Shown here one piece after another: positions 4,891 to 23,202 of a stretch of 26,007 bases of DNA. Under the pieces are notes generated by a model, which was given only the letters and a program-made list of their open reading frames with translations, did not search any database and was not told where the DNA came from. Origin of the DNA: a bacterium (GTDB lineage Bacteria; UBA6262; WVXT01); assembly GCA_046759165.1 (NCBI GenBank), contig JBHIBS010000022.1, positions 1 to 26,007 on the forward strand. The letters run 5' to 3'. Within the stretch, counting starts at the first letter, position 1; each line of letters starts with the position of its first letter. The translations under genes and the position numbers were made by a program.

Positions 4891-5056
4891 CTCCATTTAT
4901 TAAAATATACCTGCTTATTAATACTTCGAATACCAATTCTGTTAATCCGTATTCTAGAGGAAACCTGCCAAATCTTTTATCAAAGAAGAAACTTTTTATT
5001 TACTCTCTATCTTATATATTTTTGCTACAAACTGGGGAAAGGCTTCAAAAAAGGTA

Positions 5057-5085
5057 TTGACTTTTAGTTAAAATACAGGTATTGT
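5057..5085 (+). promoter_or_regulatory. Sigma70-type promoter upstream of the Fic pseudogene
   Basis: TTGACT-N17-TATTGT. Confidence 0.55.
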
Positions 5086-5143
5086 ATTAAACGAAACGAC
5101 ACTTTATTTAATAATGGAATATTTTATTTAATAGATATTTGAT

Positions 5144-6279
5144 ATGGGTATGGGACTCTTTAAGAAAGTAGTGCGGGCCGAGTAATACAGATACCTGAAG
5201 GATGTTGGGCCTTTGTCCCCAATTCTTCTGCTCCAAGGTTGTCATGGAATAACTCTTTAATTTCTTTAGATTTCAAAGGCAGATTATGCGTTAGGCACGC
5301 TTAATGGCTTAGGCGAGACACTACCCAATCCCCATCTTTTTATTTATCCTTTTATAAGACGGGAGGCATTCTTTCCTCTCGGATAGAAGGAACGGTTTCT
5401 TCTCTATTTGACCTCTTTTTATTTGAAGCAACAAAAATTGAAAAACAAAAGGATGTAAGAGAAATGCAAAACTATGTAAAAACCCTGGAATATAGGATTA
5501 AATGCCTTAAAGAGATGGCCTTGAGTTTACGAGTTATTCGAGAACTTCATCAAGTTCTTTTAAAAGGTGTGCGAGGAGAATATGCTATTCCTGGGGAGTT
5601 CGTAAGACTCAAAACTGGATTGGTCCACCAGGTTGCACTATAGATGATGCCACTTATGTGCTACCACCTGTCACGGAGATGAACGAGTCCTTGAGTCAAT
5701 TTGAAAAATTTTTACATTCAAGTGAACCTATCACTCCGTTGGTTAAAGTAGCTCTTACCTATTACCAATTCGAAGCAATCCATCCTTTTCTTGATAGTAA
5801 CGGTCGTATTGGAAGATTGCTTATTACTCTTTATCTATATTACAAAGAGCTTCTTCTAAAACCACTACTTTATCTTAGCGGATTCTTTAAAAAAATATCA
5901 TCAGGGGTATTATGAATACCTTTTAAAAGTGAGTCAACAGGGAGAATTGCGAACATGGATTGAAATTTTTTTACAAGCAGTAATTAGTCAATCCGAAGAT
6001 ACTGTACAAAAATCTAGGTAAGTTGTAAATCTTCAGTAGGAATACCGAAAAAATATAAGTGAAAAAGCTCTATCTCCAACGCCGGGGCAGATTTTAAATG
6101 TTATCTTTACAAGACCAGTAATAAACATTAATTCTGCTAAGAAAGCACTTGGATTGCCATTCCCTGCAGTTAGTGAAGCTATGAAACAACTCGTAGATAT
6201 TGGGATATTAAAAGGGACCGCTGGTGAGAAACGGAATAAGATCTATGTCGTAGAGGAAATTTTAAAGATTTTAGAGTAA
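5144..6279 (+). pseudogene. Fic/DOC-family protein pseudogene
   Basis: Fragments across frames: WAFVPN, ALGTLNGLGETLPNPHLF, SSRIEGT, QNWIGPPG, QFEAIHPFLDSNGRIGRLLI and a C-terminal HTH ending KRNKIY. Several frameshifts; stops at 6019 and 6037. Confidence 0.9.
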
Positions 6280-12147: not shown

Positions 12148-13689
12148 ATGGCAACTCTTAAAGAATTGACAAAAAGACCAAAGATTCTAACCCCAGGGCA
12201 TCGTCTCTGTGCAGGTTGCGGCGCTTCCATTGGTATACGGCAGGTCCTTCTGGGAACTGAAGACCCTGTTGTTGTGGGATGCGCTACAGGGTGTGTGGAA
12301 GTAGCCACCACAATCTATCCTTACACAGCCTGGAAGTCGCCCTTTATACACAATGCTTTTGAAAACGTGGCAGCCACAATAAGCGGCGTAGAGACCGCAT
12401 ATCGAACTCTCAAGAAGAAAGGAAAGATAAAAAAAGAGATAAAGTTTGTGGCTTTTGGTGGCGATGGTGGTACATATGATATAGGACTACAGTCGCTTTC
12501 CGGAGCTCTGGAAAGAGGCCACAAGATGGTCTATGTCTGTTACGATAACGAAGCCTATATGAACTGTCTTAGCCTTTCTTCTTTAATAGCAACCAAAGAT
12601 GGTCTCAAGAAAATTACCGAAATAAAAGTAGGCGAGCAAGTCTATGGCTTTGACATGAAGACGCATGAGTTAGTTCTAAAAGGATGCAGTGGCATTTTTG
12701 ATAATGGCATACACGATGTATATGGACTTTCGACTTTACATCATTCTATTAAAGCGACTTCAAACCATCCCTTTTTGGTTCTCAAGACAAACGCTCAAGG
12801 CAAAGACAATGAGTTAGTCTGGAAGGAGCTAAAAGATATCTCATCTGGAGATGAAATTGTTGTCTCTAAACAATTGGTACCGGGTAAATCAAAAAAGTTC
12901 GATTTTAACAAGGTCAAGACGGGAGATTACAGGGTAGACAGAATAAACTTTGCCTTACGAGACAGTTCTGAGGGTACAACAGTTTTGCTAGACGGTGGCA
13001 CGGCAGTCCTTACTGTACCCAAAGAAGAAGATTATCAGAACTTTTTGATTAGCAACGAATATTTTGCAATGGAAAAAGTAAAAGGAATAAAGTTGGTGGG
13101 GGAAGAGCCGACTTTGGATTTAAGGGTAGAAGACGAACACAACTTTATTGCTAATGGTATTGTTGTCCACAATACTGGCATTCAACGTTCAGGCGCCACT
13201 CCCTGTGGTGCTTCCACAACTACCGAACCAGCAGGGAAAGTGAAGTCTGGGAAGGAGCAGTTTCGAAAAGACCTGACCTCAATAGTAGCAGCTCACCACA
13301 TTCCCTATGCAGCCCAGGTATCGATATCCCACTGGAAAGACCTGGTCAACAAAGCAGAAAAGGCGTTCAAAGCCGATGGACCGGCATTCATCAACATGCT
13401 TGTCCCCTGCCATCGGGGATGGCGCTATCCAATGGAAAAGACAGTAGAGATTTCAAAATTGGCAGTAAATACGGGATTCTGGCCCCTGTTTGAAGTGGAT
13501 AATGGGGTCTGGAGGATAACCATTCATCTAAAAGAGAGAAAGCCAATTATCGAGTGGATAAAGAGCCAGGGAAGATATAGCCATCTCCTGAAAGAAGTGA
13601 ATAAGCCAATTTTGGATAGGATACAGAAGGAAGTAGACGACTACTGGAAGTACCTCGAAGGGCTCTGCAAAGCCAGCCAATCCCAATAA
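12148..13689 (+). CDS. porB: Pyruvate:ferredoxin oxidoreductase beta subunit (intein-containing precursor)
   Basis: GHRLCAGCG and GGDGGTYDIG. The TPP motif YDNEAYMN|TGIQRS is split by an intein; spliced length 310 aa. Confidence 0.94.
   Translation: MATLKELTKRPKILTPGHRLCAGCGASIGIRQVLLGTEDPVVVGCATGCVEVATTIYPYTAWKSPFIHNAFENVAATISGVETAYRTLKKKGKIKKEIKFVAFGGDGGTYDIGLQSLSGALERGHKMVYVCYDNEAYMNCLSLSSLIATKDGLKKITEIKVGEQVYGFDMKTHELVLKGCSGIFDNGIHDVYGLSTLHHSIKATSNHPFLVLKTNAQGKDNELVWKELKDISSGDEIVVSKQLVPGKSKKFDFNKVKTGDYRVDRINFALRDSSEGTTVLLDGGTAVLTVPKEEDYQNFLISNEYFAMEKVKGIKLVGEEPTLDLRVEDEHNFIANGIVVHNTGIQRSGATPCGASTTTEPAGKVKSGKEQFRKDLTSIVAAHHIPYAAQVSISHWKDLVNKAEKAFKADGPAFINMLVPCHRGWRYPMEKTVEISKLAVNTGFWPLFEVDNGVWRITIHLKERKPIIEWIKSQGRYSHLLKEVNKPILDRIQKEVDDYWKYLEGLCKASQSQ
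12565..13173 (+). mobile_element. Mini-intein (203 aa, Hint domain) in PorB
   Basis: Starts CLS, block B ATSNHPFL (TxxH), block F/G TLDLRVEDEHNFIANGIVVHN, +1 Thr. No LAGLIDADG motif recognised. Confidence 0.93.
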
Positions 13690-13710
13690 TAAAGGACGTG
13701 TGAAAACTCC

Positions 13711-13735
13711 GTAGGGGTTCGATTCATCGAACTCG
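13711..13735 (+). repeat. GTAG-type REP copy 3
   Basis: GTAGGGGTTCGATTCATCGAACTCG hairpin. Confidence 0.75.
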
Positions 13736-13800
13736 TTAGTAATAGGAGTAGCAGAGTAAAGCCTGCGTTCTAATTGAGCACAGGCTGATTCACAAAAGGT

Positions 13801-13875
13801 TCCCCGGTAGCTCAATGGTGGAGCATCCGGCTGTTAACCGGAGGGTTGTTGGTTCGAGTCCAACCCGGGGAGCCA
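13801..13875 (+). tRNA. tRNA-Asn (GTT)
   Basis: Acceptor TCCCCGG/CCGGGGA, anticodon arm CCGG-CTGTTAA-CCGG, T arm GTTGG-TTCGAGT-CCAAC, encoded CCA. Confidence 0.97.
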
Positions 13876-14015
13876 ATTTTAACGGTTCGAACTAATAAAG
13901 ATGGCTTTAGAATTAAAATGGTGTAGAACTGTGCCAATAATTTTGTCCATAAACATAAGAAATGGCTGAAAACACACGAATAACCTCCACACCTGCCAGA
14001 TCTAAGACTCACCCC

Positions 14016-14101
14016 GCTCGCTACGTTGTAAGCTTGCCGAGTTCGGAATAAATTAGTAAGGTTCAAAAGATTTGTAAAATTGGACATAAAATTGCTTGGT
14101 C
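14016..14101 (+). repeat. IR-A left arm (inverted repeat with 16185-16272)
   Basis: Reverse complement aligns to 16185-16272 at roughly 80-85% identity (manual alignment). Confidence 0.9.
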
Positions 14102-14144
14102 GGCTCCTGTAATGGTGAAAAATTCAGTAAAAGTTAGTTCTATA

Positions 14145-14293
14145 TGTTCATTATATATTTGTGTTCATAATAAGTGAACAATTATAAAATATGAACACTT
14201 TATCGATATAAGTACCTAAGTTAAAAAAAGACTTGACATTTGTTCAAAATTATGCTATGTTCATTAATAGAGAACACATTAAAAAAGTGAACA
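14145..14293. promoter_or_regulatory. Two palindromic operators plus sigma70 promoter of the AbiE operon
   Basis: TGTTCA-N11-TGTTCA-N7-(T/A)GAACA-N11-TGAACA at 14145-14197 and again at 14241-14293. TTGACA(14233)-N17-TATGTT overlaps the second. Confidence 0.8.
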
Positions 14294-14307
14294 AATAGGG
14301 TGATATT

Positions 14308-15342
14308 ATGTATAATAATCTTGAAAATGAAATCCTTAATATGGCTTTAGACACATTCAAGAAGAATATAGATTTGCCAATCAATATTGAAATAAAAGAA
14401 TTTGAATTAACTAATAACATAATATTTGACAAGTTATTAAAAATCAAAGTACAGGGAATAGACATATTCTTTTGTGTTGAGATAAAGACAACAATTAATA
14501 AAGCTACTATAGGTTTTCTTCTGCAACAAAGGGATAAATTACCCCATCAACAACTTCTAATAGCAAAATATATAACAACATATATGGCCGAAGAGTTAAG
14601 AAAAAATGGTATTCAATTTATAGATACTGCCGGAAATACATATATAAACCATTTTCCAATTTATATTTATGTCAAAGGTAATATGCCTCTTAATGTATTT
14701 ATGAGAATGCAACCTAAACGTGCTTTTAAACCAACTGGCTTAAAAATGACCTACGCGTTACTGTGCAATCCCAATCTAATAAATAAACCATATCGTCATA
14801 TTGCAAAAGTCGCTGATGTCGCTTTAGGAACAGTAGGCTGGATAATAAGAGATCTAAGAGAACTAGGTTTTTTAGTTGAAATGGGTAAAAGGGGTAAGAA
14901 GTTAATTCATAAAGAAAACTTATTTAATAGATGGTGCACTGAATATGCAGAAAAACTTAGGCCAAAGTTATTTCTAGGTAAATTTAAGGGCCCTAACGAT
15001 TGGTGGAAAAATAGGAACTTGAATCCTGACTTTGCTCAATGGGGGGGTGAAGTCGCTGCCCATAAACTTACAAAGTACATAAAACCACAAAATATTTTAA
15101 TCTATACGATACGTCATCAATATAATAATTTAATAACTGAAAATAGATTAATAAAAGATGAAAAAGGTGAAACTGAAATCCTTGAACGTTTTTGGGGTTT
15201 TAATAAAATTGACGAATTTAATGATATTGTGCATCCTGTTTTGGTTTATGCTGATTTGACGGCGACTGGTAATCAGAGAAATATTGCAACGGCAAAAATG
15301 ATCTATGAGCAATATATCGTTCGATATATCAGGGAAAATTGA
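14308..15342 (+). CDS. Type IV TA system AbiEi-family antitoxin / transcriptional regulator
   Basis: FIDTAGN, HTH PYRHIAKVADVALGTVG, WGGEVAA, VHPVLVYADL; overlaps the nucleotidyltransferase gene. Confidence 0.85.
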   Translation: MYNNLENEILNMALDTFKKNIDLPINIEIKEFELTNNIIFDKLLKIKVQGIDIFFCVEIKTTINKATIGFLLQQRDKLPHQQLLIAKYITTYMAEELRKNGIQFIDTAGNTYINHFPIYIYVKGNMPLNVFMRMQPKRAFKPTGLKMTYALLCNPNLINKPYRHIAKVADVALGTVGWIIRDLRELGFLVEMGKRGKKLIHKENLFNRWCTEYAEKLRPKLFLGKFKGPNDWWKNRNLNPDFAQWGGEVAAHKLTKYIKPQNILIYTIRHQYNNLITENRLIKDEKGETEILERFWGFNKIDEFNDIVHPVLVYADLTATGNQRNIATAKMIYEQYIVRYIREN

Positions 15343-16186
15343 TAAGTCCTATATTGAAGCTCTTAATGAAATAAGAACAGTAGCTGAATCATTAGGAATT
15401 CCATTTTTTATTATAGGAGCTTTAGCAAGAGATGTCATCTTGGAACATTGTCATAATATCAAAGCTCCAGGTATGACTAATGATATAGATTTGGGAATAA
15501 AAGTTGAGGGTTGGGAACAGTTTAATAATTTAATTGATACCTTAATAAAAACAGGAAAATTTGAAAAAACAAGAGAAAAACAGAGAATTCGTTTTAATGA
15601 GGTCCTTATCGATATAGTTCCTTTTGGAAAAGTATCCGACAATGAGTACAGAATAAGCTGGCCACCTGAACACGAATTAATAATGAGTATACTTGGATTT
15701 GACGAAGTCTATCAATATTCAATAATTATAAGATTAAGTAGAGACCCTATTTTGGATGTAAAACTTCCATCATTACCAGGATTAGCTATTTTAAAATTAC
15801 TATCATGGAAAGATAAGTATGCTGAAAGAGAAAAAGATGCTGAGGATTTATTATTTATAATGAATAATTATGAACATGCCGGAAATTTTGAAAGATTGTA
15901 TGATAATGAATTACAGTTGCTTGAAGGCGAGAAATTTGACAATAAGATTGCTAGTATAAGATTATTGGGTAGAGATATGGCAAGGATTTGTAGCGAAGAT
16001 ACACTTAATAGTATTAGACAGATATTATCAGAAGAAACAGAAGATCAATCAAAATTTAATTTAGTTATAGATATGATGAGTAGCCATAATAATTTTGATG
16101 AGACATTATATCTGTTGAAAAAATTAAAAGATGGAGTTTTTGATATAAAACAATTAATAAATTTCTTAGCATTATGCAAGGGTTGA
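15305..16186 (+). CDS. AbiEii/AbiGii-like nucleotidyltransferase toxin
   Basis: FIIGALARD..TNDIDLGI NTase motif, IDIVPFG, LAILKLLSW, KDAEDL. Confidence 0.85.
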   Translation: MSNISFDISGKIDKSYIEALNEIRTVAESLGIPFFIIGALARDVILEHCHNIKAPGMTNDIDLGIKVEGWEQFNNLIDTLIKTGKFEKTREKQRIRFNEVLIDIVPFGKVSDNEYRISWPPEHELIMSILGFDEVYQYSIIIRLSRDPILDVKLPSLPGLAILKLLSWKDKYAEREKDAEDLLFIMNNYEHAGNFERLYDNELQLLEGEKFDNKIASIRLLGRDMARICSEDTLNSIRQILSEETEDQSKFNLVIDMMSSHNNFDETLYLLKKLKDGVFDIKQLINFLALCKG

Positions 16187-16272
16187 CCAAGCAACTTTTG
16201 TACCCAATTTTACAAAGTTTTTTGAATTTTACTAATTTATTTCGAGGTCGGCGAGCTTGCAACGTAGTGAGC
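16185..16272 (-). repeat. IR-A right arm
   Basis: Inverted partner of 14016-14101; begins at the toxin stop codon. Confidence 0.9.
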
Positions 16273-16414
16273 TTTAGTTCTAACATACTGCGAAATAAGG
16301 AGCTAATTACCCATATAATCCGAACTTTTTCGGATTAAGAAAAAGCCCTTGATCTGGGAAAGGTCGACGGCTTTTAATTTAATAATATTAAGGGGCGCTG
16401 TCTCCATTTACGCT

Positions 16415-16789
16415 ATGAAAGAAAAATTAAGAATATTCATAAGTTCACCCATTAAAGGGTTGGAAGAAGAAAGAAAAGCTTTAATCGAAGCTTTAGAAAA
16501 AGAATATACTCCAGAAGCTATGGAGTTATGGGTTTCTTCTCCGGAACATCCCAAAAATGTTTGTCTTGAAAGAGTGAGAAATTCGGATGCTTTAATCGTT
16601 CTTACGGGGCCTTATTATGGGAGCGTGGATCCATTAACTGGTAAGTCGTTTACGGAATTAGAATATGATGAGGCAGATGCATATGGGATTGATATTTTTC
16701 ATTTTTATAAAGTAAAAGATGAGGGACACCGGGGGGAGACGGTGACCGACTCGAGTCCGAAGGACCGCGGAAGTGAGTGCCCAGCCTGA
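16415..16789 (+). pseudogene. DUF4062 (TIR-like) domain protein, probably 3'-truncated
   Basis: RIFISS..GLEEER, CLERVRNSD..I...G..YGS, SFTELEYDEA. After about 16720 the frame runs into a GC-rich repeat and stops inside it. Confidence 0.7.
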
Positions 16790-16838
16790 TGAACGAGGGA
16801 GTTAAGGGTAAGTGAAGAAGGGAGTCCTACCCAGGGAG
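16759..16838 (+). repeat. Direct repeat X copy 1, ending in a tRNA-Asn 3' fragment (att-like)
   Basis: GCGGAAGTGAGTGCCCAGCCTGATGAACGAGGGAGTTAAGGGTAAGTGAAGAAGGGAGTCCTACCCAGGGAG is near-identical to 20210-20282. The last 17 nt match tRNA 13856-13872 at 15/17. Confidence 0.88.
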
Positions 16839-16966
16839 TTCGCCCCCCTTATATAGGCTTCCTCAGATGCCTGTTTCGTTGGCCTATTTTTTGATGAAAT
16901 CAAAACATGAAGATAAATCTCTTAAAAATTTCCCTAAAAATAATTTATTAATTGACTTTTTTAACT
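16836..16966 (+). repeat. IR-B left arm (inverted repeat with 19760-19890)
   Basis: 131-bp arm, about 90% identical to the reverse complement of 19760-19890; contains an inward-facing TTGACT. Confidence 0.93.
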
Positions 16967-17127
16967 TATAATATAATAATAAAAGTTCGATTTAGTCACT
17001 CCTTATAAGGATTTTTTATAGGATTAAATAATAAAACAATAAGGTAAGTAAGGCTTATTAAGCAAAAGTATTCTTCAATAAAGAATGAGCGAGAGTGCAA
17101 AAATTTTTAAAATCAGGGAGGTGTACG

Positions 17128-17571
17128 ATGAAGAATGTTAAAGTTAAAGAGGTAAGAGAACTTATTACTCCTCATCCTTCTCTTATTGGAGCCAGTGCTC
17201 CTGCAGTTCAGGCGGCAGAGGCTATATTAAGAAATCCCACAACAAGAGCGGTCTGTGTTGTAGATAAGGAATCCAAACTTTTAGGAATTATAAATATAAG
17301 AAGACTGTTGAGACATTTTCTTCCTCAAATGTTTGGAGAAGACATTTTAGGTAGAGGAATGCTTGAAAATCTTTTTGTAGGAAAAGCAAAGGATTTAATT
17401 TTACATCCTCCTGTCTATGTTACTGAAGAGGATAACCTTGAGAATGCAGTGAAACTTATGGTTGAGAACGAACTTGACGAACTTCCTGTGGTAGATAAGG
17501 AGTTAAAGGTGATTGGTGAGTTAAATATTTTGGAGATTCTTTCTGTATGGCTGATTAAGACTCAAGGGTAA
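17128..17571 (+). CDS. CBS-pair domain protein
   Basis: Tandem CBS repeats (VCVVDKESKLLGII; LPVVDKELKVIGEL); GGAGGTG RBS before ATG 17128. Confidence 0.88.
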   Translation: MKNVKVKEVRELITPHPSLIGASAPAVQAAEAILRNPTTRAVCVVDKESKLLGIINIRRLLRHFLPQMFGEDILGRGMLENLFVGKAKDLILHPPVYVTEEDNLENAVKLMVENELDELPVVDKELKVIGELNILEILSVWLIKTQG

Positions 17572-17648
17572 ATGTAAGAGAATTAAGATAATCCTGTTGT
17601 GCAATTTGCTTTGTCAGAAGGAGGAGGAAAATTTAGAAGGAGGCTGAA

Positions 17649-18161
17649 ATGTTATTAGGAAAATATATGAGTGAAGATCTTATAATCTGTAATCTTACTT
17701 CAAAAGGTAAAATGGAAGTAATTGAGGAGATGGTAGAACTTTTTGTTAAAACAGGAGTTGTTAAAAATAAAGAAGAATTTTGCACTACCATAAGAAAAAG
17801 GGAGGAATTAGAATCAACGGCAATTGGAGGAGGTATTGCTATTCCTCATGGAAGATCTAACTCGGTGAAAGAATTGAAAGTTGCCTTTGCACGGTCAAAA
17901 GATGGGGTTGATTTTAAAGCAATGGACAAGAAACCTGTACATATCATATTTATGATTGCTGCTCCCCTTAAAGATCGAAAAAAATATCTTCAAATAGTTG
18001 CGAAAATAGCCAGACTCTTAAAGTCAAAAATTATGCAGGAGGCTTTATTGAAAACAGAAACTCCAAAGGATGTTATGGAACTTATCCAAGATTTTGATAA
18101 GATGCTAATAGAAGAAATAAAGATCAAGACTAAAAAGGGGAAAATAGTATACCGAAAGTGA
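17649..18161 (+). CDS. PTS EIIA (fructose/nitrogen-regulatory type) protein
   Basis: RE..ESTAIGGGIAIPHGR phospho-His motif, GVDF.AMDKKPVHIIFMI. Confidence 0.9.
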   Translation: MLLGKYMSEDLIICNLTSKGKMEVIEEMVELFVKTGVVKNKEEFCTTIRKREELESTAIGGGIAIPHGRSNSVKELKVAFARSKDGVDFKAMDKKPVHIIFMIAAPLKDRKKYLQIVAKIARLLKSKIMQEALLKTETPKDVMELIQDFDKMLIEEIKIKTKKGKIVYRK

Positions 18162-18168
18162 ATGATTT

Positions 18169-19362
18169 ATGAATACGCTTTTAATCATAGGAAGTATTCT
18201 TATTATTGGGATTATTGGAGCAGCTCTTGTTCGCAGAATAAAATTACCTTCAGTTGCCGGCTGGTTAATAATTGGAGTAATATTAGGTCCATCTGTTCTA
18301 AAACTCATTAGCCCTGAACTTTTAGATGAACTTGGTTTTATATCGGATATTGCACTGGGATTAATTGGTGTTATTATAGGGCTTGAAATTACAATAGGCA
18401 CACTTAAAAAGCTTGGCAGTGGTATAATCTCAATAATTTTATTTGAATCCTTTGGTGCGTTTCTGCTTGTTTTGTTGGGGGTATATCTATTAACTCATAA
18501 TTTACCTCTTTCTTTAATTTTTGCCTCCCTTGCTCCTGCATCAGCGCCTGCTGGAACAGTAGCGGTTTTGGATGAGTATAAGGCTAAAGGACCCCTTACA
18601 AAAGCTCTGCTTGTGACAGTAGGTGCAGATGATGCACTCGCTATAATGATCTTTGTGTTTGCTTCCTCCTATGCCAAAATATTAATAAGTGGAGAGAAAC
18701 TTTCAGTATTGGTCACAATAGGAAAGCCTTTGCTTGAGATTATTCTGGCAGTTGGAATTGGAGGAACGATTGGATGGGCTTTGGGATTCTTCTCACAGAA
18801 GATAAGAACAGATGAGGTCCTTTTACCTGTAAGTTTAGGAGCAATACTTATCTGTGTAGGGTTGTCAAAACTTATGCATTTTTCACTCATCCTTGCAAAT
18901 GTGGTCGGTGGGATCATTTTAGTTAATACTTTTCCACGCATATCTATACGTATTTCCAAAAATTTAGAATCATTCATACCACCACTTTATGTATGCTTTT
19001 TTGCATTAGCAGGAGCACATCTTGATCTGAAGTTGCTCTTAACTCTGGGAGTATTAGGGGTAGTTTATACAGTATGCAGATCGGGGGGATTAATAGGAGG
19101 GGCACGAATAGGTGCTATTATTGGAAAGGAACCTCCTGTTATTAAGAAATATTTGGGATTTGGGATACTCTCTCAAGCAGGAGTGGCGGTTGGTTTGGCT
19201 TACCTTGTCGTAAGAGAATTTGTTCCGCTTGGAGCAGTAGGTAAGGGAATAGCCACTCTTGCCATAACTACCATAGCAGCAACAACGATTATCTTTGAGA
19301 TCATTGGGCCTATAGGTACAAAATTTGCTATAACAAAGGCTGGTGAAATAGGGAGGAAATAA
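18169..19362 (+). CDS. Cation:proton antiporter (CPA family)
   Basis: KLPSVAGWLIIGVILGP, ASAPAGT, GADDA, FFALAGAHL, SQAGVAVGLA, FEIIGP; many TM helices. Confidence 0.9.
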   Translation: MNTLLIIGSILIIGIIGAALVRRIKLPSVAGWLIIGVILGPSVLKLISPELLDELGFISDIALGLIGVIIGLEITIGTLKKLGSGIISIILFESFGAFLLVLLGVYLLTHNLPLSLIFASLAPASAPAGTVAVLDEYKAKGPLTKALLVTVGADDALAIMIFVFASSYAKILISGEKLSVLVTIGKPLLEIILAVGIGGTIGWALGFFSQKIRTDEVLLPVSLGAILICVGLSKLMHFSLILANVVGGIILVNTFPRISIRISKNLESFIPPLYVCFFALAGAHLDLKLLLTLGVLGVVYTVCRSGGLIGGARIGAIIGKEPPVIKKYLGFGILSQAGVAVGLAYLVVREFVPLGAVGKGIATLAITTIAATTIIFEIIGPIGTKFAITKAGEIGRK

Positions 19363-19706
19363 TGTACTTAATTATGATAACCTTACACAAGGAGGAATAT
19401 TTAGATGACGTTCTTTCTTGTCTTGTTGAATTAGGGATCGAGGATGCAGTAACTGTTGATTCTGAATCGATGGAGAAAGCACTCGCTTACAAAGTGCCTA
19501 TTTTTGCTGGTCTGAAATTTGATCTCAGAGGGAAACCATTTTCAAAATTGATTCTCGCCGTCTCTAAAAATAGGCAATCTGGAAAAGAATTAATGACCCT
19601 TCTTAAGGAGGTGGGAATTAATCTTGAGGAGCCTGGGGTAGCAAGAATTCTCACTTTGAAGTTAGAGTCTTTACTTGGAACGCCAAAAACTATAGAAGAG
19701 ATATAG
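19362..19706 (+). CDS. Hypothetical protein, probably PII-like fold
   Basis: Overlaps the antiporter stop codon. LHKEEYLDDVL..L.E.GI..A.TVDS..M pattern resembles PII-like proteins. Confidence 0.6.
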   Translation: MYLIMITLHKEEYLDDVLSCLVELGIEDAVTVDSESMEKALAYKVPIFAGLKFDLRGKPFSKLILAVSKNRQSGKELMTLLKEVGINLEEPGVARILTLKLESLLGTPKTIEEI

Positions 19707-19759
19707 TCAGATTTTCCACCTTCATGAACACACAATCTACGGACATTACACAAAATTTG

Positions 19760-19890
19760 AGTTAAAAAAGTCAATTGATAAATTATTTTTAGGGAAATTT
19801 TCTAAGAGATTTATCTTCATGTTTTGATTTCATAAAAAAATAGCCCAGCGAAACAGGTCTCTGAGGAAGCCTATATAAGGGGGCGGGCTC
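19760..19890 (-). repeat. IR-B right arm
   Basis: Inverted partner of 16836-16966. Confidence 0.93.
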
Positions 19891-20107
19891 GGAACGCAGA
19901 CTATGGAAGTCCGAAGGGCTGGAGTCCAAACACCGAGACTGCGAGGCGAAGATTCGGCTTTCTGCCCGACAGAAGCTTTACACCTACCTTGAGGAATGTG
20001 GACAATTTCGTTTTTAAGGTAGTAAAATATCAGAAATCGTTTGTTTTTCCTTGTATTTGGAAGGCCAAAAATGAAGACGAGGGAAAAGTTCGCATTCTTC
20101 CCCCTCT

Positions 20108-20138
20108 CGGGGAGCCAATTCATTTTCAATGAATTGGC
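20108..20138 (+). repeat. tRNA-Asn 3'-end copy (att-like) with hairpin
   Basis: CGGGGAGCCAATT is identical to 13866-13878 (13/13) and overlaps the perfect stem GCCAATTCATT-TTC-AATGAATTGGC. Confidence 0.7.
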
Positions 20139-20199
20139 GAGTTTGCTGGCTCGCCGAAGGACTCGAAGGGTGCGAACGCCGAGGTCATCCGAGGAAGAG

Positions 20200-20283
20200 C
20201 GAAGGATGAGCGGAAGTGAGTGCCCATCCTGATGAACGGGGGAGTTAAGGGTAAGTGAAGAAGGCGAGTCCTACCCGGGGAGC
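20200..20283 (+). repeat. Direct repeat X copy 2, ending in a tRNA-Asn 3' fragment (att-like)
   Basis: CGAGTCCTACCCGGGGAGC (20265-20283) matches tRNA 13855-13873 at 18/19. The upstream part matches copy 1. Confidence 0.88.
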
Positions 20284-20340
20284 AAAGCTCCCCAAGACCC
20301 CTCTCTTTTATATTTCTGCCTTGACGAGAAAAGATTTTGC

Positions 20341-20369
20341 TTGACAAAGAATACTAAGCGTTGTAAAAT
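20341..20369 (+). promoter_or_regulatory. Sigma70 promoter
   Basis: TTGACA-N17-TAAAAT. Confidence 0.7.
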
Positions 20370-20404
20370 TTTTTTGGGTATAATGAAAAGAGGGGGTATT
20401 TACT

Positions 20405-20890
20405 ATGATAAAAATAATGTCGCTATTCATCGCGTGTACGCTTGTATTATCCCTATTTTCACTAGGAAAAGCCGAAGAACTCACTTATCCAAAGGAAATT
20501 CCACCTATTATTTATGACATTTATGATCTGGTCATTAGGGATAATCCGCTTAAAGTTATTCCGGATTATCCCGAGGATTATTGGCAAAGTCCAGCCGAAA
20601 CTGAAGCTCGTGGTGGAGGAGATTCTGAAGATCTGGCCATCTGGGTCTATAAGAAGCTCTATGATCTGGGTTATCAGGTAAGTCTTATGACGTGTCGAAT
20701 TCAGGTATGGGGAAGTGATGACTTTCATATGTGGGTACGGTTTAATACCCACGAGACTCTTGGGGGAGCCTTTGAAGTTTGGGATATTGATCTGACTACG
20801 AGAGACAAAATTTTTCCTGGAAGAATCGCTTATAAGCCTCCTCCGGAATACGAACCTAAGCTGAAAGCGGCTCTTGAGAGGGATAAATAG
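20405..20890 (+). CDS. Exported transglutaminase-like (BTLCP-type) protein with Cys-to-Ser change
   Basis: Signal peptide; DYWQSPAETEARGGGDSEDLAI versus family DYWxxPxET..GxGDCEDxAI; downstream HMWV. Confidence 0.7.
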   Translation: MIKIMSLFIACTLVLSLFSLGKAEELTYPKEIPPIIYDIYDLVIRDNPLKVIPDYPEDYWQSPAETEARGGGDSEDLAIWVYKKLYDLGYQVSLMTCRIQVWGSDDFHMWVRFNTHETLGGAFEVWDIDLTTRDKIFPGRIAYKPPPEYEPKLKAALERDK

Positions 20891-21310
20891 AGGGGTGGCA
20901 GTCATAAGCAAAACGCTCTTAGGGTTCAGAGAATGGTAGCAGAAGGAAAAATGGGAAAAAAGCACTGAAGTACGATCGCCTGACTGAAAGGCAGGAGCCT
21001 GTACCTTTTGACGTTGCTGTGGGAAAGCGTGTATGTGATATTGCCAGGATTCGGATGGTCTCTGCAAACTCCATAAACCTATGGAAGAAGTATCATGAGA
21101 AGTTAAGTCCCTTACAAAATTATGGATTGTAGGATTTCCAAAAGAAGAGCTTGATAGAGAATAAGGAGTGGATTTCGCAATTAACAAATATAGTTCTTTA
21201 GCAATAGCATCGTTATATCTTGTAGACCGTCCCATTTAACTCTTACCTTCCAAATATTCTGTTACAAGTGCATTCGGCAATCCCCAGTTGAATAAGGAAG
21301 TGGAACGATT

Positions 21311-21366
21311 AGAAAATGGGGACAGTCACCTATTTTCTCAAAAAATGGTCGCTGTCCCTATTTTCT
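21311..21366. repeat. REP-like inverted repeat (GGGACAG..CTGTCCC type)
   Basis: AGAAAATGGGGACAGTCACC / GGTCGCTGTCCCTATTTTCT, 17/20 complementary. Confidence 0.65.
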
Positions 21367-21479
21367 TATATAGCCGAATTAGATATCTTTTTTCTTGCAA
21401 CCGTGGATAGTATTAGGTAAGATTATGAATAGATAGTTCATTGAAAAATTAAATCTGTAGCTTTTTAAATTTTCCCCCC

Positions 21480-21551
21480 TTCAGAGGCGAATTGGTTGAG
21501 CAGGACGCAAATGAGGAACCGGCATCGGACTTATTGAAGAGAGTAAGATAG
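21480..21551 (+). pseudogene. hsdS: Type I R-M specificity subunit C-terminal relic
   Basis: FRGELVEQDANEEPASDLLKRVR matches the HsdS tail consensus AFRGELVxQDxNDEPASxLLxRI. No upstream ORF. Confidence 0.75.
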
Positions 21552-21758
21552 CAAAAGAAGATAAGTATCAGTAAATCTAAGTTTGCAGAAAAGACCGTAA
21601 GAATGGTAGGTTTCTGTTGAGGATAGAATTTAAGTTCTAAGCTGTATAATACAGCATGAGAGATGAACCTGGATAAGATTAAATTTGATAAATTAAGAGC
21701 GTTAAGCGAAGAAGAGATGTTTGGTAGCGGGATATATTTTTGCAGTGAGTAACATATA

Positions 21759-21786
21759 CGGGGAGCCATCTTTATTGGTTCGGACT
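21759..21786 (+). repeat. tRNA-Asn 3'-end copy plus flank (att-like)
   Basis: CGGGGAGCCA-TCTTTATTGGTTCGGACT versus the tRNA end CGGGGAGCCA-ATTTTAACGGTTCGAACT. It also matches the opposite arm of the palindrome that follows the tRNA. Confidence 0.75.
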
Positions 21787-22010
21787 CTTACCTTTTTGAC
21801 AATAACAAATATAAATCTAACTGCCACTTTTATTCATTTTTTGTTCTTCTTTTTCATAATAACCCTACCTACTAGCTTCCAAAATATTATTAAAGTTCTC
21901 ACTCCAAATTCGTAGCCCCATCCTAAAAATCTAATCTTACCATCGATAATGTATAGGTTCGATGAACTTGCGCTGAGTTTAATTGAAGTATCGAACTTCC
22001 ATTATAACAA

Positions 22011-22039
22011 TTGACTAAATAATAAAAATCATATAGAAT
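22011..22039 (+). promoter_or_regulatory. Sigma70 promoter
   Basis: TTGACT-N17-TAGAAT. Confidence 0.6.
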
Positions 22040-22128
22040 AAGGTAAAAAATAGGTCTGAATTTCCTAGGTGCTTCGATTTAAGCGGATACTCCAGAGTCA
22101 AAAACAGGAGCAGGGTGGTGAATAATTT

Positions 22129-23202
22129 GTGAATCTTTCTAATTGGCCGTTGGCTTTTTTAACACTTGGCATCTTAATGAGCAACATCCTGGCAGTCATA
22201 GTTGCTTCCTTAGTCGTTATTCTTGTGGTGACAAAAGTTATAGGCGTGCTCTGGGACAAGTACAAAAACAAACGACAAGCATCTCTCAAGTCCCTGGCTC
22301 TTGAATTCCTGCGTACAGGAAATGCTGAAGCGAAACTTCCACTGAAGAATTTAGGGTGGGCAGATGCTGTGATATTCAAGGCGATTCTTCTGGAATTGTC
22401 AGAGGAGATTTCTGGAATTCAACAATCAAGGGCTACGGAACTGTATGAATTTTCCGGCATTGCCGATAGTGAAATCCGCACTCTCAGGCGTTCCTGGTTT
22501 TGGTGGTTGAGGGCGGCAGCAGCGCATGCTCTTGGCCAGATGCGTGTCAAACGCGCCAAGAACGATTTGATCCAGGCACTTCGCGATAAAAGTATAGAAG
22601 TGCGACTCGAAGCTACTTGGGCGATAGGACACATGGGATTTGTGGACACCTTGCCTCTGATTGTGGAGAGCATGTCTCGTTTCTTCAAGATAGCAGCTTT
22701 ACGGATGGATGCTTTCATTTTTGAGATGGGTGCCCCAGCCCTGCCTATTTTATTGGATCTCTGTAAGCATCCAGAATGGGAAATTCAGTTATTGGCAATC
22801 CACCTCGTTGGGGAATTCAAAGATCCAGGGACGGTGGAAGTACTCTTGCCCCTGTTGGATTCCCAAAATTTGGAGATTCGCCTGGCGGCTTGCAAAGCTA
22901 TAGGTTCGATTGGCGATCCAAAAGGCTTGTCTGGTATCATTCCGTACATGGAGGATTCAGCTTGGCAGATGAGGGCCCAGGCTGCCAAGCAGTTTGGACG
23001 CAACCGTTTCACCTCTGCAATCCCTGGTCTATTAAAATGCCTGGAGGATTTAGCTTGGTGGGTGCGGCTCAATGCGGGTGAGGCGTTGAGTCAGATGGGG
23101 GAAAGGGGAAGAATCGCCCTCAAAAAAGCGCTCAAATCACAGGATCGCTTCGCCAGGGATATGGCTACTCAGTGGCTCGATGAATTGGAGGCAACTCCAT
23201 GA
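22129..23202 (+). CDS. Membrane-anchored HEAT-repeat protein
   Basis: N-terminal TM segment; repeats LRAAAAHALG, VRLEATWAIG, IRLAACKAIG, MRAQAAKQFG, WWVRLNAGEAL. Confidence 0.88.
   Translation: MNLSNWPLAFLTLGILMSNILAVIVASLVVILVVTKVIGVLWDKYKNKRQASLKSLALEFLRTGNAEAKLPLKNLGWADAVIFKAILLELSEEISGIQQSRATELYEFSGIADSEIRTLRRSWFWWLRAAAAHALGQMRVKRAKNDLIQALRDKSIEVRLEATWAIGHMGFVDTLPLIVESMSRFFKIAALRMDAFIFEMGAPALPILLDLCKHPEWEIQLLAIHLVGEFKDPGTVEVLLPLLDSQNLEIRLAACKAIGSIGDPKGLSGIIPYMEDSAWQMRAQAAKQFGRNRFTSAIPGLLKCLEDLAWWVRLNAGEALSQMGERGRIALKKALKSQDRFARDMATQWLDELEATP

Follow-up and report, generated by a model that had tools for sequence, protein, structure and literature searches.

An array of small cargo modules bounded by copies of a tRNA-Asn 3' end, and without a recombinase match, in a sediment bacterium of a candidate phylum

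In Dehalococcoides, genomic islands lie in tandem at the ssrA gene, inserted at its T-loop and bounded by a direct repeat of about 20 bp of the ssrA 3' end; the sections of that report considered here count 16 islands with a serine-recombinase (DsiB) integration module and 15 without an integration module, the latter discussed as cis-mobilizable elements (CIMEs) and accretion, and describe island content as strain-specific (PMC3146451). The preprint on Prochlorococcus, in the passages concerned, has elements stacking at tRNA genes with only partial tRNA copies between them, and islands that hold remnants, in which integrases are broken up and additional partial tRNAs occur, and that carry adaptive or defensive cargo (bioRxiv 10.1101/2020.12.28.424599). 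Partial tRNA genes are described as general integration products (PMC9897764, relevant section), and the asn tDNAs of Klebsiella pneumoniae as hot spots for different genomic islands (PMC4891358). Here, we analyze a stretch of 26,007 nucleotides (nt), referred to as the window, that is the whole of contig JBHIBS010000022.1 in a metagenome-assembled genome (G000; 1.885 Mb in 165 contigs, 92% complete, 3.5% contamination), and within it an array of small cargo modules behind the tRNA-Asn gene. An earlier note on this DNA had proposed that small non-autonomous cassettes were added serially at this tRNA by integrases acting in trans. On balance, we consider it probable that the array consists of cassettes bounded by attachment (att) sites and mobilized in trans at tRNA-Asn.

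The array is anchored by an intact tRNA-Asn(GTT) gene with encoded CCA (13801-13875, + strand; ARAGORN; Rfam RF00005, 69.6 bits), which is the sole tRNA gene found by ARAGORN in the window and is 97% identical to its orthologue in the related genome G006. Right behind it the G+C content drops from about 0.45 to 0.30-0.36, then climbs gradually and reaches about 0.46 again only from about 22 kb. Four direct copies of the tRNA 3' end, claimed in the earlier note, were confirmed by reading of the sequence and by shuffle controls: copy 1 at 16822-16838 (gagtcctacccagggag, 15/17), copy 2 at 20108-20120 (+; cggggagccaatt / CGGGGAGCCAATT, 13/13, short class, by sequence and exact 10-mer count), copy 3 at 20265-20283 (+; cgagtcctacccggggagc, 18/19) and copy 4 at 21759-21768, where 10/10 nt equal 13866-13875 and, with the flank, 23 of 28 nt match 13866-13893 (repeat family D7). 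A 19-mer search allowing up to 3 mismatches gave two matches against 0.00 expected (100 shuffles), and exact CGGGGAGCCA gave three against 0.03. Copy 1 alone, with 4 mismatches over 19 nt, fails the 19-mer chance test; it is homologous to copy 3, because its region (16758-16838) is 92% identical to that of copy 3 (20200-20282) in a repeat of 81-83 nt. Copy 4 with the native tRNA-Asn trailer (21759-21789, +) forms the outer right boundary of the array, and 30 of these 31 nt equal the sequence that closes an ars module in G006 (L027:9808-9838), with 28 of 31 shared with G008 (contig C88). At the left boundary, the junction core CGGGGAGCCAATT (13866-13878, +), which is the tRNA 3' end plus 3 nt and is common to copy 2, is followed by the first module's left end attttaacGGTTCGAACtaataaagatggct (13879-13906, +), an inverted copy of the native trailer at 21764-21790 (inverted repeat I7, 27 nt, 85%). 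The array thus has, at its far boundary, the direct repeat of the tRNA 3' part by which tRNA-integrated genomic islands are recognized, and its content varies between related genomes with the flanks kept; no integrase gene at one end turned up in the 30 window ORFs scanned.

We read the interval 13876-21758 as a likely recombination hot spot at the tRNA-Asn 3' end that would hold small recombinase-less cargo modules, in the order abiEi/abiEii, DUF4062, CBS-EIIA-Na+/H+ exchanger, a cargo-free E unit, and a LapG-like gene with relics. Each junction would consist of a tRNA 3'-end copy preceded by one of two non-coding end modules, an E-type end leading into a long copy that starts in the T-loop and an A-type end into a short copy, CGGGGAGCCA. 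The modules would behave as non-autonomous, CIME-like islands that are present, absent or reordered with junctions exactly at the copies. Conservative site-specific recombination at the copies, by a recombinase encoded elsewhere or lost, is the most likely mechanism and would lead to tandem accretion; the shuffling is probably increased by homologous exchange among end modules that recur. Our inferences concern the recombinase itself, the sequence of events and whether the modules still move today.

The nine genomes of the Genome Taxonomy Database (GTDB) family, G000 among them, served for comparison, the whole phylum comprising 12 genomes. Flanks are kept in G006, namely the pyruvate:ferredoxin oxidoreductase (PFOR) genes, tRNA-Asn and, 13 kb on, a HEAT-repeat gene, and the content between them is unrelated: behind tRNA-Asn stands a 5.4-kb ArsR/ArsP/methyltransferase/DsbD/ACR3 module, then the 30/31 match to copy 4 and trailer. 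Copies of CGGGGAGCCAT in direct orientation delimit this ars module, inverted AAAATCCGAACTTTT motifs lie immediately within its two ends, and it gives no recombinase match. G001, G004, G005 and G008 likewise retain the HEAT flank. In G003, tRNA-Asn is followed by a CBS module ending in A + the short copy cgcggagccaaattt and by a helix-turn-helix-nucleotidyltransferase module ending in E' (a short form of E) + cgagtcctacccggggagcca, whose long copy carries CCA. The LapG-like module recurs in G001 and G004 with homology that starts exactly at 20266, at the start of copy 3 (20266-20949, 88-89% identical); upstream of it a different body of about 175 nt stands in place of E, and in G004 an A module comes after it. 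G008 has A-type junctions that run on into CCAATTT or the native trailer.

Evidence from metagenomes came from Logan contigs, of which X4 and X6 belong to two other studies and X2 and X3 to the study of the probable source; joints and depth were taken from these contigs, in which rare variants get dropped, and parts of the stretch left uncovered in X4 and X6 mean absence from those contigs only. One X4 contig joins 20118 to 21759, that is, copy 2 to copy 4, and another joins 20272 to 13863 through 11 shared letters, placing an E unit with its tRNA 3' end (E-t3') ahead of the abiE module; an X6 contig joins 20283 to 21960. In X4 and X6, E-t3' also leads directly into A. Depth is near zero over about 17.0-19.3 kb (the antiporter module) in both, with the adjoining modules covered, so the 20272-to-13863 joint represents another linear order and not a circle. 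Loose contig ends in X2, X3 and X6 begin just behind 13876-13879, and the left end of the first module also stands behind an E-t3' unit in an X4 contig, with a similar left end in G003. The array reading holds because relatives and metagenomes carry other or reordered cargo with breakpoints at the copies, as the earlier note had expected; fixed content without such breakpoints, the outcome that would have spoken against it, was not seen. This variability at the copies is a direct observation, as are the anatomy of the array and the lack of recombinase matches.

As proposed, the copies fall into a long and a short class, and these classes differ in their flanking end modules. Copies 1 and 3, taken for plain integration scars in the earlier note, turn out to be the 3' termini of E, an element inherited vertically beside ten tRNA species: a full Asn-type E (20156-20283, +; covariance model (CM) R1, 130.4 bits; covariation) ends in copy 3, and E', a short E without the P2-P3 core (16721-16839, +; CM R1, 42 bits, E-value 6e-9; nhmmer E-value 1.4e-10; 92% to 20200-20282), ends in copy 1. 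Most of copy 2 belongs as CGGGGAGC to the conserved end of A, the non-coding right end of an A-type cassette (19996-20107, +). Further copies of A lie in G000 on contigs C80 and C7 (86-88%) and in G001, G003, G004 and G008. Its terminus, the last 31 nt or so, consists of AAAAGTTCGGATTTT, a CCCC-loop-GGGG hairpin and AGC(CA), and also closes the G006 ars module. A small peptide encoded in A was rejected, as the frame is shifted by an indel between copies.

An exact-pattern scan of metagenome contigs for the A terminus returned at least 119 stretches from sediment metagenomes, with defence genes as frequent neighbours, and 80 loci with 83 junctions were examined. Among the matches listed, the junction is followed by CA, which completes a tRNA-like GCCA end, in 37/83, the whole A body is shared in 11/83, and the left-end motif TTTYCGAAYCTGA...CCGAACTT appears within 80 nt after the junction in 13/83, which suggests cassettes in tandem. 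At locus L218 the tRNA 3' end and a ATCCGAACTTTTCGGAT motif precede a SIR2 gene and then an A terminus, and at L151 an REase-ARP module sits between two junctions. The complete cassette plan (att and a TCCGAAC-type left end, cargo, GTTCGGATTTT hairpin and att) was found in seven units of 0.94-5.4 kb from metagenome and family loci; six of the seven measure at most 3.0 kb, and the five of 0.9-1.4 kb would hardly have space for a recombinase gene in addition to cargo. In many organisms, cargo of unrelated kinds stands between the same left- and right-end motifs. Defence-type families near A junctions include OLD-like, REase-ARP, SIR2, AbiEii, SMODS/DncV-like, Eco57I-type restriction-modification, Fic and TIR; among 142 open reading frames (ORFs) that reach 230 aa or more and lie no further than 3 kb from the junctions of the 80 listed loci, many are defence-type and many others housekeeping. 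Four matches beside sigma-54 activator genes (L193, L210, L215, L225), with atypical spacer and flank, are probably coincidental coding matches. Ten metagenome A loci searched against Rfam (E-value ≤0.1) returned a tmRNA that is unrelated and, next to the L152 junction, two weak matches to Thr_leader far under the gathering score. Single-strand folds of six native right-end/att/left-end junctions were weak (z -0.36 to -3.03), and we therefore claim no attC-like hairpin. One A-type junction, at L151:7133-7164, lies about 100 nt past the 3' end of a convergent glmS-glmU pair. The position beyond glmS is the one used by Tn7-like elements; no transposition genes were seen over the 3 kb scanned at this junction.

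E is a structured element of about 127 nt that ends in a 3'-end copy of its own tRNA and occurs at ten tRNA species, tRNA-Asn included. Its 5' start is the reverse complement of the T-loop of that tRNA, reading GGGATTCGAAG for TTCGAATCC tRNAs, GGGACTTGAAG for Leu and GGACTCGAAGG for Asn. The model CM R1, built from seven copies, finds 39 E matches in all nine family genomes and none in the remaining three genomes of the phylum. Adjacency to tRNA genes was scored for 29 of 34 E copies, the last five being left out: a same-strand tRNA lies at most 420 nt upstream in 24 of the 29, and in 21 of these 24 the tRNA 3' end accounts for 17-20 of the last 22 nt, the other three being degenerate second units. 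In G000, two tandem copies and a partial third stand 11-15 nt behind tRNA-Gln(ctg), further copies behind tRNA-Ser(cga), tRNA-Ser(gga) and tRNA-Leu(gag), and a partial one behind tRNA-Glu(ctc). Cargo-free tandem units occur at tRNA-Gln, tRNA-Trp and tRNA-Ser. Counted on the model-fitted alignment, whose fitting tilts somewhat toward structure, 87% of cells are paired against 36-52% with slid partners, and 90 cells show double changes against 36 in shuffles, with helices 1 and 2 strongest; E also covaries with the T-loop of its own tRNA. Because E cores group by tRNA identity and not by genome (orthologues 83-95% identical, paralogues 48-77%), E is old and vertically inherited, not recently mobile. 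Asn-type E copies read CCTAC where the resident tRNA has CCAAC, and this T-stem allele is present in tRNA-Asn genes of other organisms.

Neither E nor A belongs to an Rfam family by cmscan (E-value ≤1, positions 13000-22500), which returned the tRNA and one sub-threshold antisense match on the tRNA. A role of E as a TnpB/IscB guide RNA was rejected on zero PF07282 matches in G000 (92% complete) and G006, both E-bearing, and an origin as a retroelement product on zero PF00078 matches in G000. E may be a structured RNA co-transcribed with the tRNA or a fossil minimal integrated element. A pattern scan of genome contigs gave 16 stretches, with five CM matches at E-values <1e-9 in three of them (L065-L067), weak partial E matches in three more and none in the remaining ten. 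On a 54-kb contig of G000 (C7:8758-9011, -), an orphan Asn-type E, with no tRNA within 420 nt, leads directly into an A module, and E-then-A pairs are also seen in G001 (C140) and in X4 and X6 contigs.

That the array holds no recombinase or transposase ORF was borne out in a scan of 30 window ORFs (17 + 13) for Phage_integrase, Resolvase and transposase families, which gave no match. In G000, NCBIfam models identify XerD and XerC with scores that reach or come close to the equivalog cut-offs; the genome also has three integrase fragments, two just upstream of tRNA-Met and tRNA-Thr and one at a contig edge. The fragment at C58:4535-4810 (a 127-aa frame) lies 54 nt upstream of tRNA-Met and that at C14:28652-28831 (74 aa) 108 nt upstream of tRNA-Thr; both resemble integrases of islands that decayed at other tRNAs. 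Among tyrosine recombinases, only the XerC- and XerD-like types occur in every one of the nine family genomes; five of the nine have nothing beyond them (three of these five show only one), and the remaining genomes have extra integrases, none near Asn, A or E sequence. Integrases flanked by copy sequence, which the earlier note had proposed looking for elsewhere in the genome, did not turn up: the 17 family integrase loci, each with about 1.5 kb of flank, contain no tRNA-Asn, A or E sequence, with two chance matches of 12-13 nt only. A serine recombinase as the missing enzyme was rejected on zero PF00239 matches in G000, G001, G003 and G006 (4 of 5 genomes tested). The 142 ORFs near listed A junctions include one Phage_integrase (L218), one recombinase zinc ribbon (L168) and one rve_3 domain (L166); the L218 integrase has no close family homologue, its best matches there being the Xer proteins (30-36%). 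Viral contigs held no attP-like fragment, all six long-copy matches (6/6) being complete tRNA-Asn genes. Serial addition by trans-acting integrases therefore stands in one part, units being gained, lost and reordered at the copies; no cognate recombinase turned up, so that action in trans is inferred.

The cargo is more finely divided than had been proposed, with abiE and the antiporter operon each lying within long inverted repeats and DUF4062 having its own left-end palindrome. Both long inverted repeats had escaped the earlier reader, as had the fact that copies 1 and 3 on the one hand and copy 2 on the other are the termini of two repeats. An AbiEi-like antitoxin/regulator gene (14308-15342, +; Pfam AbiEi_2, E-value 3.5e-39) is followed by a putative AbiEii-like nucleotidyltransferase toxin gene (15305-16186, +; Pfam AbiEii, E-value 0.0016, a weak 18.9 bits against a cut-off of 22.5), and its place directly after abiEi supports the putative pairing. 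Arms at 14016-14130 and 16154-16272 surround the pair (119 nt, 79%; I2). Just before the DUF4062 gene (16349-16789, +; Pfam DUF4062, E-value 1.6e-20, residues 28-109), whose ORF tail continues into E', the palindrome TAATCCGAACTTTTTCGGATTA (16313-16336) marks the module's left end and is similar to the A-type left-end motif (compare the G006 left end AAAATCCGAACTTTTTTCGGAT). The operon at 17095-19706 (+) encodes a CBS protein, a PTS-EIIA-like regulator, a Na+/H+ exchanger and a 114-aa protein (Pfam CBS, PTS_EIIA_2, Na_H_Exchanger); its inverted repeat (124 nt, 94%) has a left arm at 16844-16966, starting about 5 nt or less after copy 1, and a right arm at 19760-19883, and occurs nowhere else in the genome. 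These inverted-repeat segments differ from transposons or miniature inverted-repeat transposable elements, as no target-site duplication was seen at the outer ends and the 124-nt repeat is confined to the locus.

AbiE with DUF4062 and the antiporter operon were thus correctly named as cargo, with AbiEii weak, and the gene called transglutaminase-like encodes a LapG-like (BTLCP/transglutaminase-like) secreted protein (20405-20890, +; NCBIfam LapG, E-value 1.8e-4; PDB 4fgo, E-value 4e-4). It reads GGGDSEDLAI against GGGDCEDFAI in Legionella LapG (4fgo) and so has Ser at the position of the nucleophile Cys. The supposed hsdS relic fared less well: the 31-aa ORF remnant (…GELVEQDANEEPASDLLKRVR; 21453-21545, +; by translation) has no match in Pfam or PDB, and its likeness to HsdS is tentative. 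A short dispersed palindromic repeat, AAAAATAGGGACAGCGACCATTTTT, occurs at 21310-21365 of the window and at G003, G004, G006 and G008 loci, and often forms inverted pairs with its complement in the tRNA-Asn arrays of several genomes.

Several observations weigh against att-bounded cassettes. Excision products and circular junctions, which the earlier note had suggested seeking, were not seen in contigs, which drop rare variants, and the X2 and X3 contigs show no joints. No cognate recombinase was found in the nine family genomes. A full tRNA-Asn gene stands upstream of the junction in only two (L172, 1.4 kb upstream; L162, 2.9 kb) of the 80 listed metagenome loci, many of which are short. The conserved A terminus includes CGGGGAGC, which leaves CAATT as the one portion of copy 2 that does not depend on A, and because E is inherited vertically at other tRNAs, copies 1 and 3, instead of being att sites, could have arisen as side products of what E does. 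Recombination at att sites does not account for the two long inverted repeats. One account that takes up some of these points holds that the array is fixed debris, left by a few decayed islands or prophages at tRNA-Asn that once bore integrases, and that genomes differ by deletion and by homologous recombination, either through end modules or following DNA uptake, and not by site-specific exchange of single cassettes. Integrase fragments beside tRNA-Met and tRNA-Thr in G000, relics such as the possible hsdS fragment and the truncated E', A and E modules (55-125 nt) long enough for occasional homologous exchange, and the lack of circles would all suit it. It sits poorly with junctions at the same nucleotide beside the tRNA-derived core in independent genomes and contigs, even where one side is unrelated, and with complete units as small as 0.94-1.4 kb that are met repeatedly, each with its two conserved ends; the same end motifs around unrelated cargo in many organisms would not be expected from random decay, and we consider this account unlikely but not negligible.

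A further possibility is that the copies are intrinsic parts of tRNA-linked E and A elements, with a function or a mobility proper to these, and that the cargo came by other routes, for example by transposon-like insertion of the inverted-repeat segments; the copies would then show the places of E and A units and not the sites of cargo recombination. The presence of E in all nine family genomes, its regular place behind a same-strand tRNA whose 3' end it repeats (24/29 and 21/24), its covariation and clustering by tRNA identity, the cargo-free tandem units at three other tRNAs and the 119- and 124-nt inverted repeats around abiE and the antiporter operon all fit this view. Yet cargo boundaries coincide with copies in G003, G006, G001, G004, X4 and X6, the inverted repeats are confined to the locus, with no target-site duplication seen, and E at other tRNAs carries no cargo, so that the association with cargo is specific to the Asn site; we find this second account distinctly unlikely. 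Coincidental short matches, or a chimeric assembly joined at repeats, would be conceivable in a 165-contig assembly with 3.5% contamination, as repeats break assemblies and the X2 unitigs break within the inverted repeats. However, shuffle controls expect just 0 to 0.03 matches, overlapping X2 and X3 contigs of ≥99% identity span the whole stretch, and independent genomes show the same architecture again; this explanation is already disfavoured and hardly credible. Trans-mobilized cassettes at tRNA-Asn thus remain our preferred reading. A bolder picture, rather unlikely when all its parts are taken jointly, is that of a tRNA-anchored cassette platform lacking a recombinase itself, in which kilobase modules with conserved ends (TCCGAAC-type on the left, GTTCGGATTTT hairpin and CGGGGAGCCA on the right), often with defence genes, would be swapped in the manner of integron cassettes by an unrecognised recombinase in the candidate phylum and in many sediment bacteria, with E elements as conserved structured tails of tRNA genes that would present a second 3' end, as landing pads or decoys steering insertions behind the tRNA.

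Beyond the array, a broken Fic/DOC gene lies at about 5000-6100 (+) in a 1.8-kb low-G+C gap before dnaX, with an 85-aa ORF that matches Pfam Fic (E-value 2.2e-12); positions 5755-5803 are 82% identical to a stretch within the G004 array. The PFOR thiamine pyrophosphate-binding beta subunit gene (12148-13689, +) contains an intein (Pfam Intein_splicing, E-value 4e-17), which is missing from the G006 gene, since the alignment skips 12564-13171 of the window. A GC-rich repeat of about 100 nt occurs at 13773-13799, abutting the tRNA-Asn 5' end, and at 14 other places in G000 (e.g., C1:76950, C2:49561, C27:14514), with another copy abutting tRNA-Val; it comprises a GGGCGCGAGACGGTGAGCGCCC hairpin, then ...ATTGAGCACAGGCTGATTCACATAAGGAGG, with the core GGCTGATTCACA in 15 copies, 12 of which terminate in an AGGAGG-type motif, usually placed 5-9 nt ahead of ATG or GTG. 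The sequence TGATTCACA is found downstream of several tRNAs in G000, which has 40 tRNA genes and no tmRNA gene by ARAGORN in its 92%-complete assembly. The tRNA-Asn(GTT) gene of four relatives in genus g4 is interrupted after base 34 by an insert of about 260 nt (G003:C59, L094:2927-3190, -; G008:C6, L093:3891-4153, -; split matches in G005:C4 and G007:C33), identified by Rfam as a group I intron (about 90 bits) in two of the four; the tRNA-Asn genes of the window and of G006 are intron-free.

If exchange at tRNA-derived cores is true, a little-known small-genome sediment lineage trades defence, ion-homeostasis and resistance genes as kilobase units without an array-borne enzyme. The conserved end motifs offer a simple handle for finding cassettes in metagenomes, with at least 119 stretches so far, and E, an undescribed structured element linked to ten tRNA species at their 3' ends, is relevant to the architecture of tRNA genes and to the evolution of attachment sites.

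Integrons and clusters of attC sites lacking an integrase (CALINs) consist of co-oriented small cassettes, each ending in a partly palindromic non-coding site of about 60-140 nt, and CALIN cargo includes defence and resistance genes. Against the proposed likeness, of which the analogy is left, the window has no IntI (TIGR02249 gives two Xer proteins at 137-149 bits against a cut-off of 265) and no attI, with PFOR genes upstream of the tRNA; its junction core is the tRNA 3' end, and its cassettes appear to have their own promoters. No attC cores (RYYYAAC/GTTRRRY) were seen by eye, no attC-specific model having been run, and the motifs GTTCGGA...TCCGAAC stand in opposite order. By definition, CIMEs derive from a related integrative and conjugative element (ICE) at the same site and are mobilized by it, and their tandem accretion is reportedly known from the ICESt1/ICESt3 family of Streptococcus thermophilus, in work attributed to Pavlovic and colleagues in 2004. 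The window resembles them in having att sites on both sides of each unit (the tRNA and copies 1-4) and no recombinase match; unlike ICESt1/ICESt3 CIMEs, no such ICE or integrase was seen, and the site is a tRNA 3' end, not fda. The asn islands of Klebsiella pneumoniae, of the Enterobacteria, are said to be large and to carry P4-type integrases; the window shares with them tRNA-Asn as a hot spot and differs in its array of kilobase-sized recombinase-less modules.

The ssrA islands of Dehalococcoides, as far as the sections considered describe them, are alike in forming tandem units downstream of one small-RNA gene, some without an integration module, and differ in that their enzyme is known, whereas none was found here in nine genomes, and in that the window modules are much smaller (about 0.2-3.3 kb) and terminate in one of two distinct non-coding end modules (E and A), which come with tRNA copies of the long or the short class. 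Unlike tycheposons, which have tyrosine recombinases and replication modules (bioRxiv 10.1101/2020.12.28.424599), the window units carry neither, and their conserved GTTCGGA/TCCGAAC end motifs and E/A modules are absent from the part of the tycheposon description compared. A literature search on E-like elements or integron-like tRNA cassettes, with supplementary files outside its range, found nothing fitting. The locus matches what is already known as tandem accretion of non-autonomous att-bounded islands, as in CIMEs and the Dehalococcoides ssrA islands; what is new are the two conserved end modules, the very small, widely found recombinase-less units and the E element.

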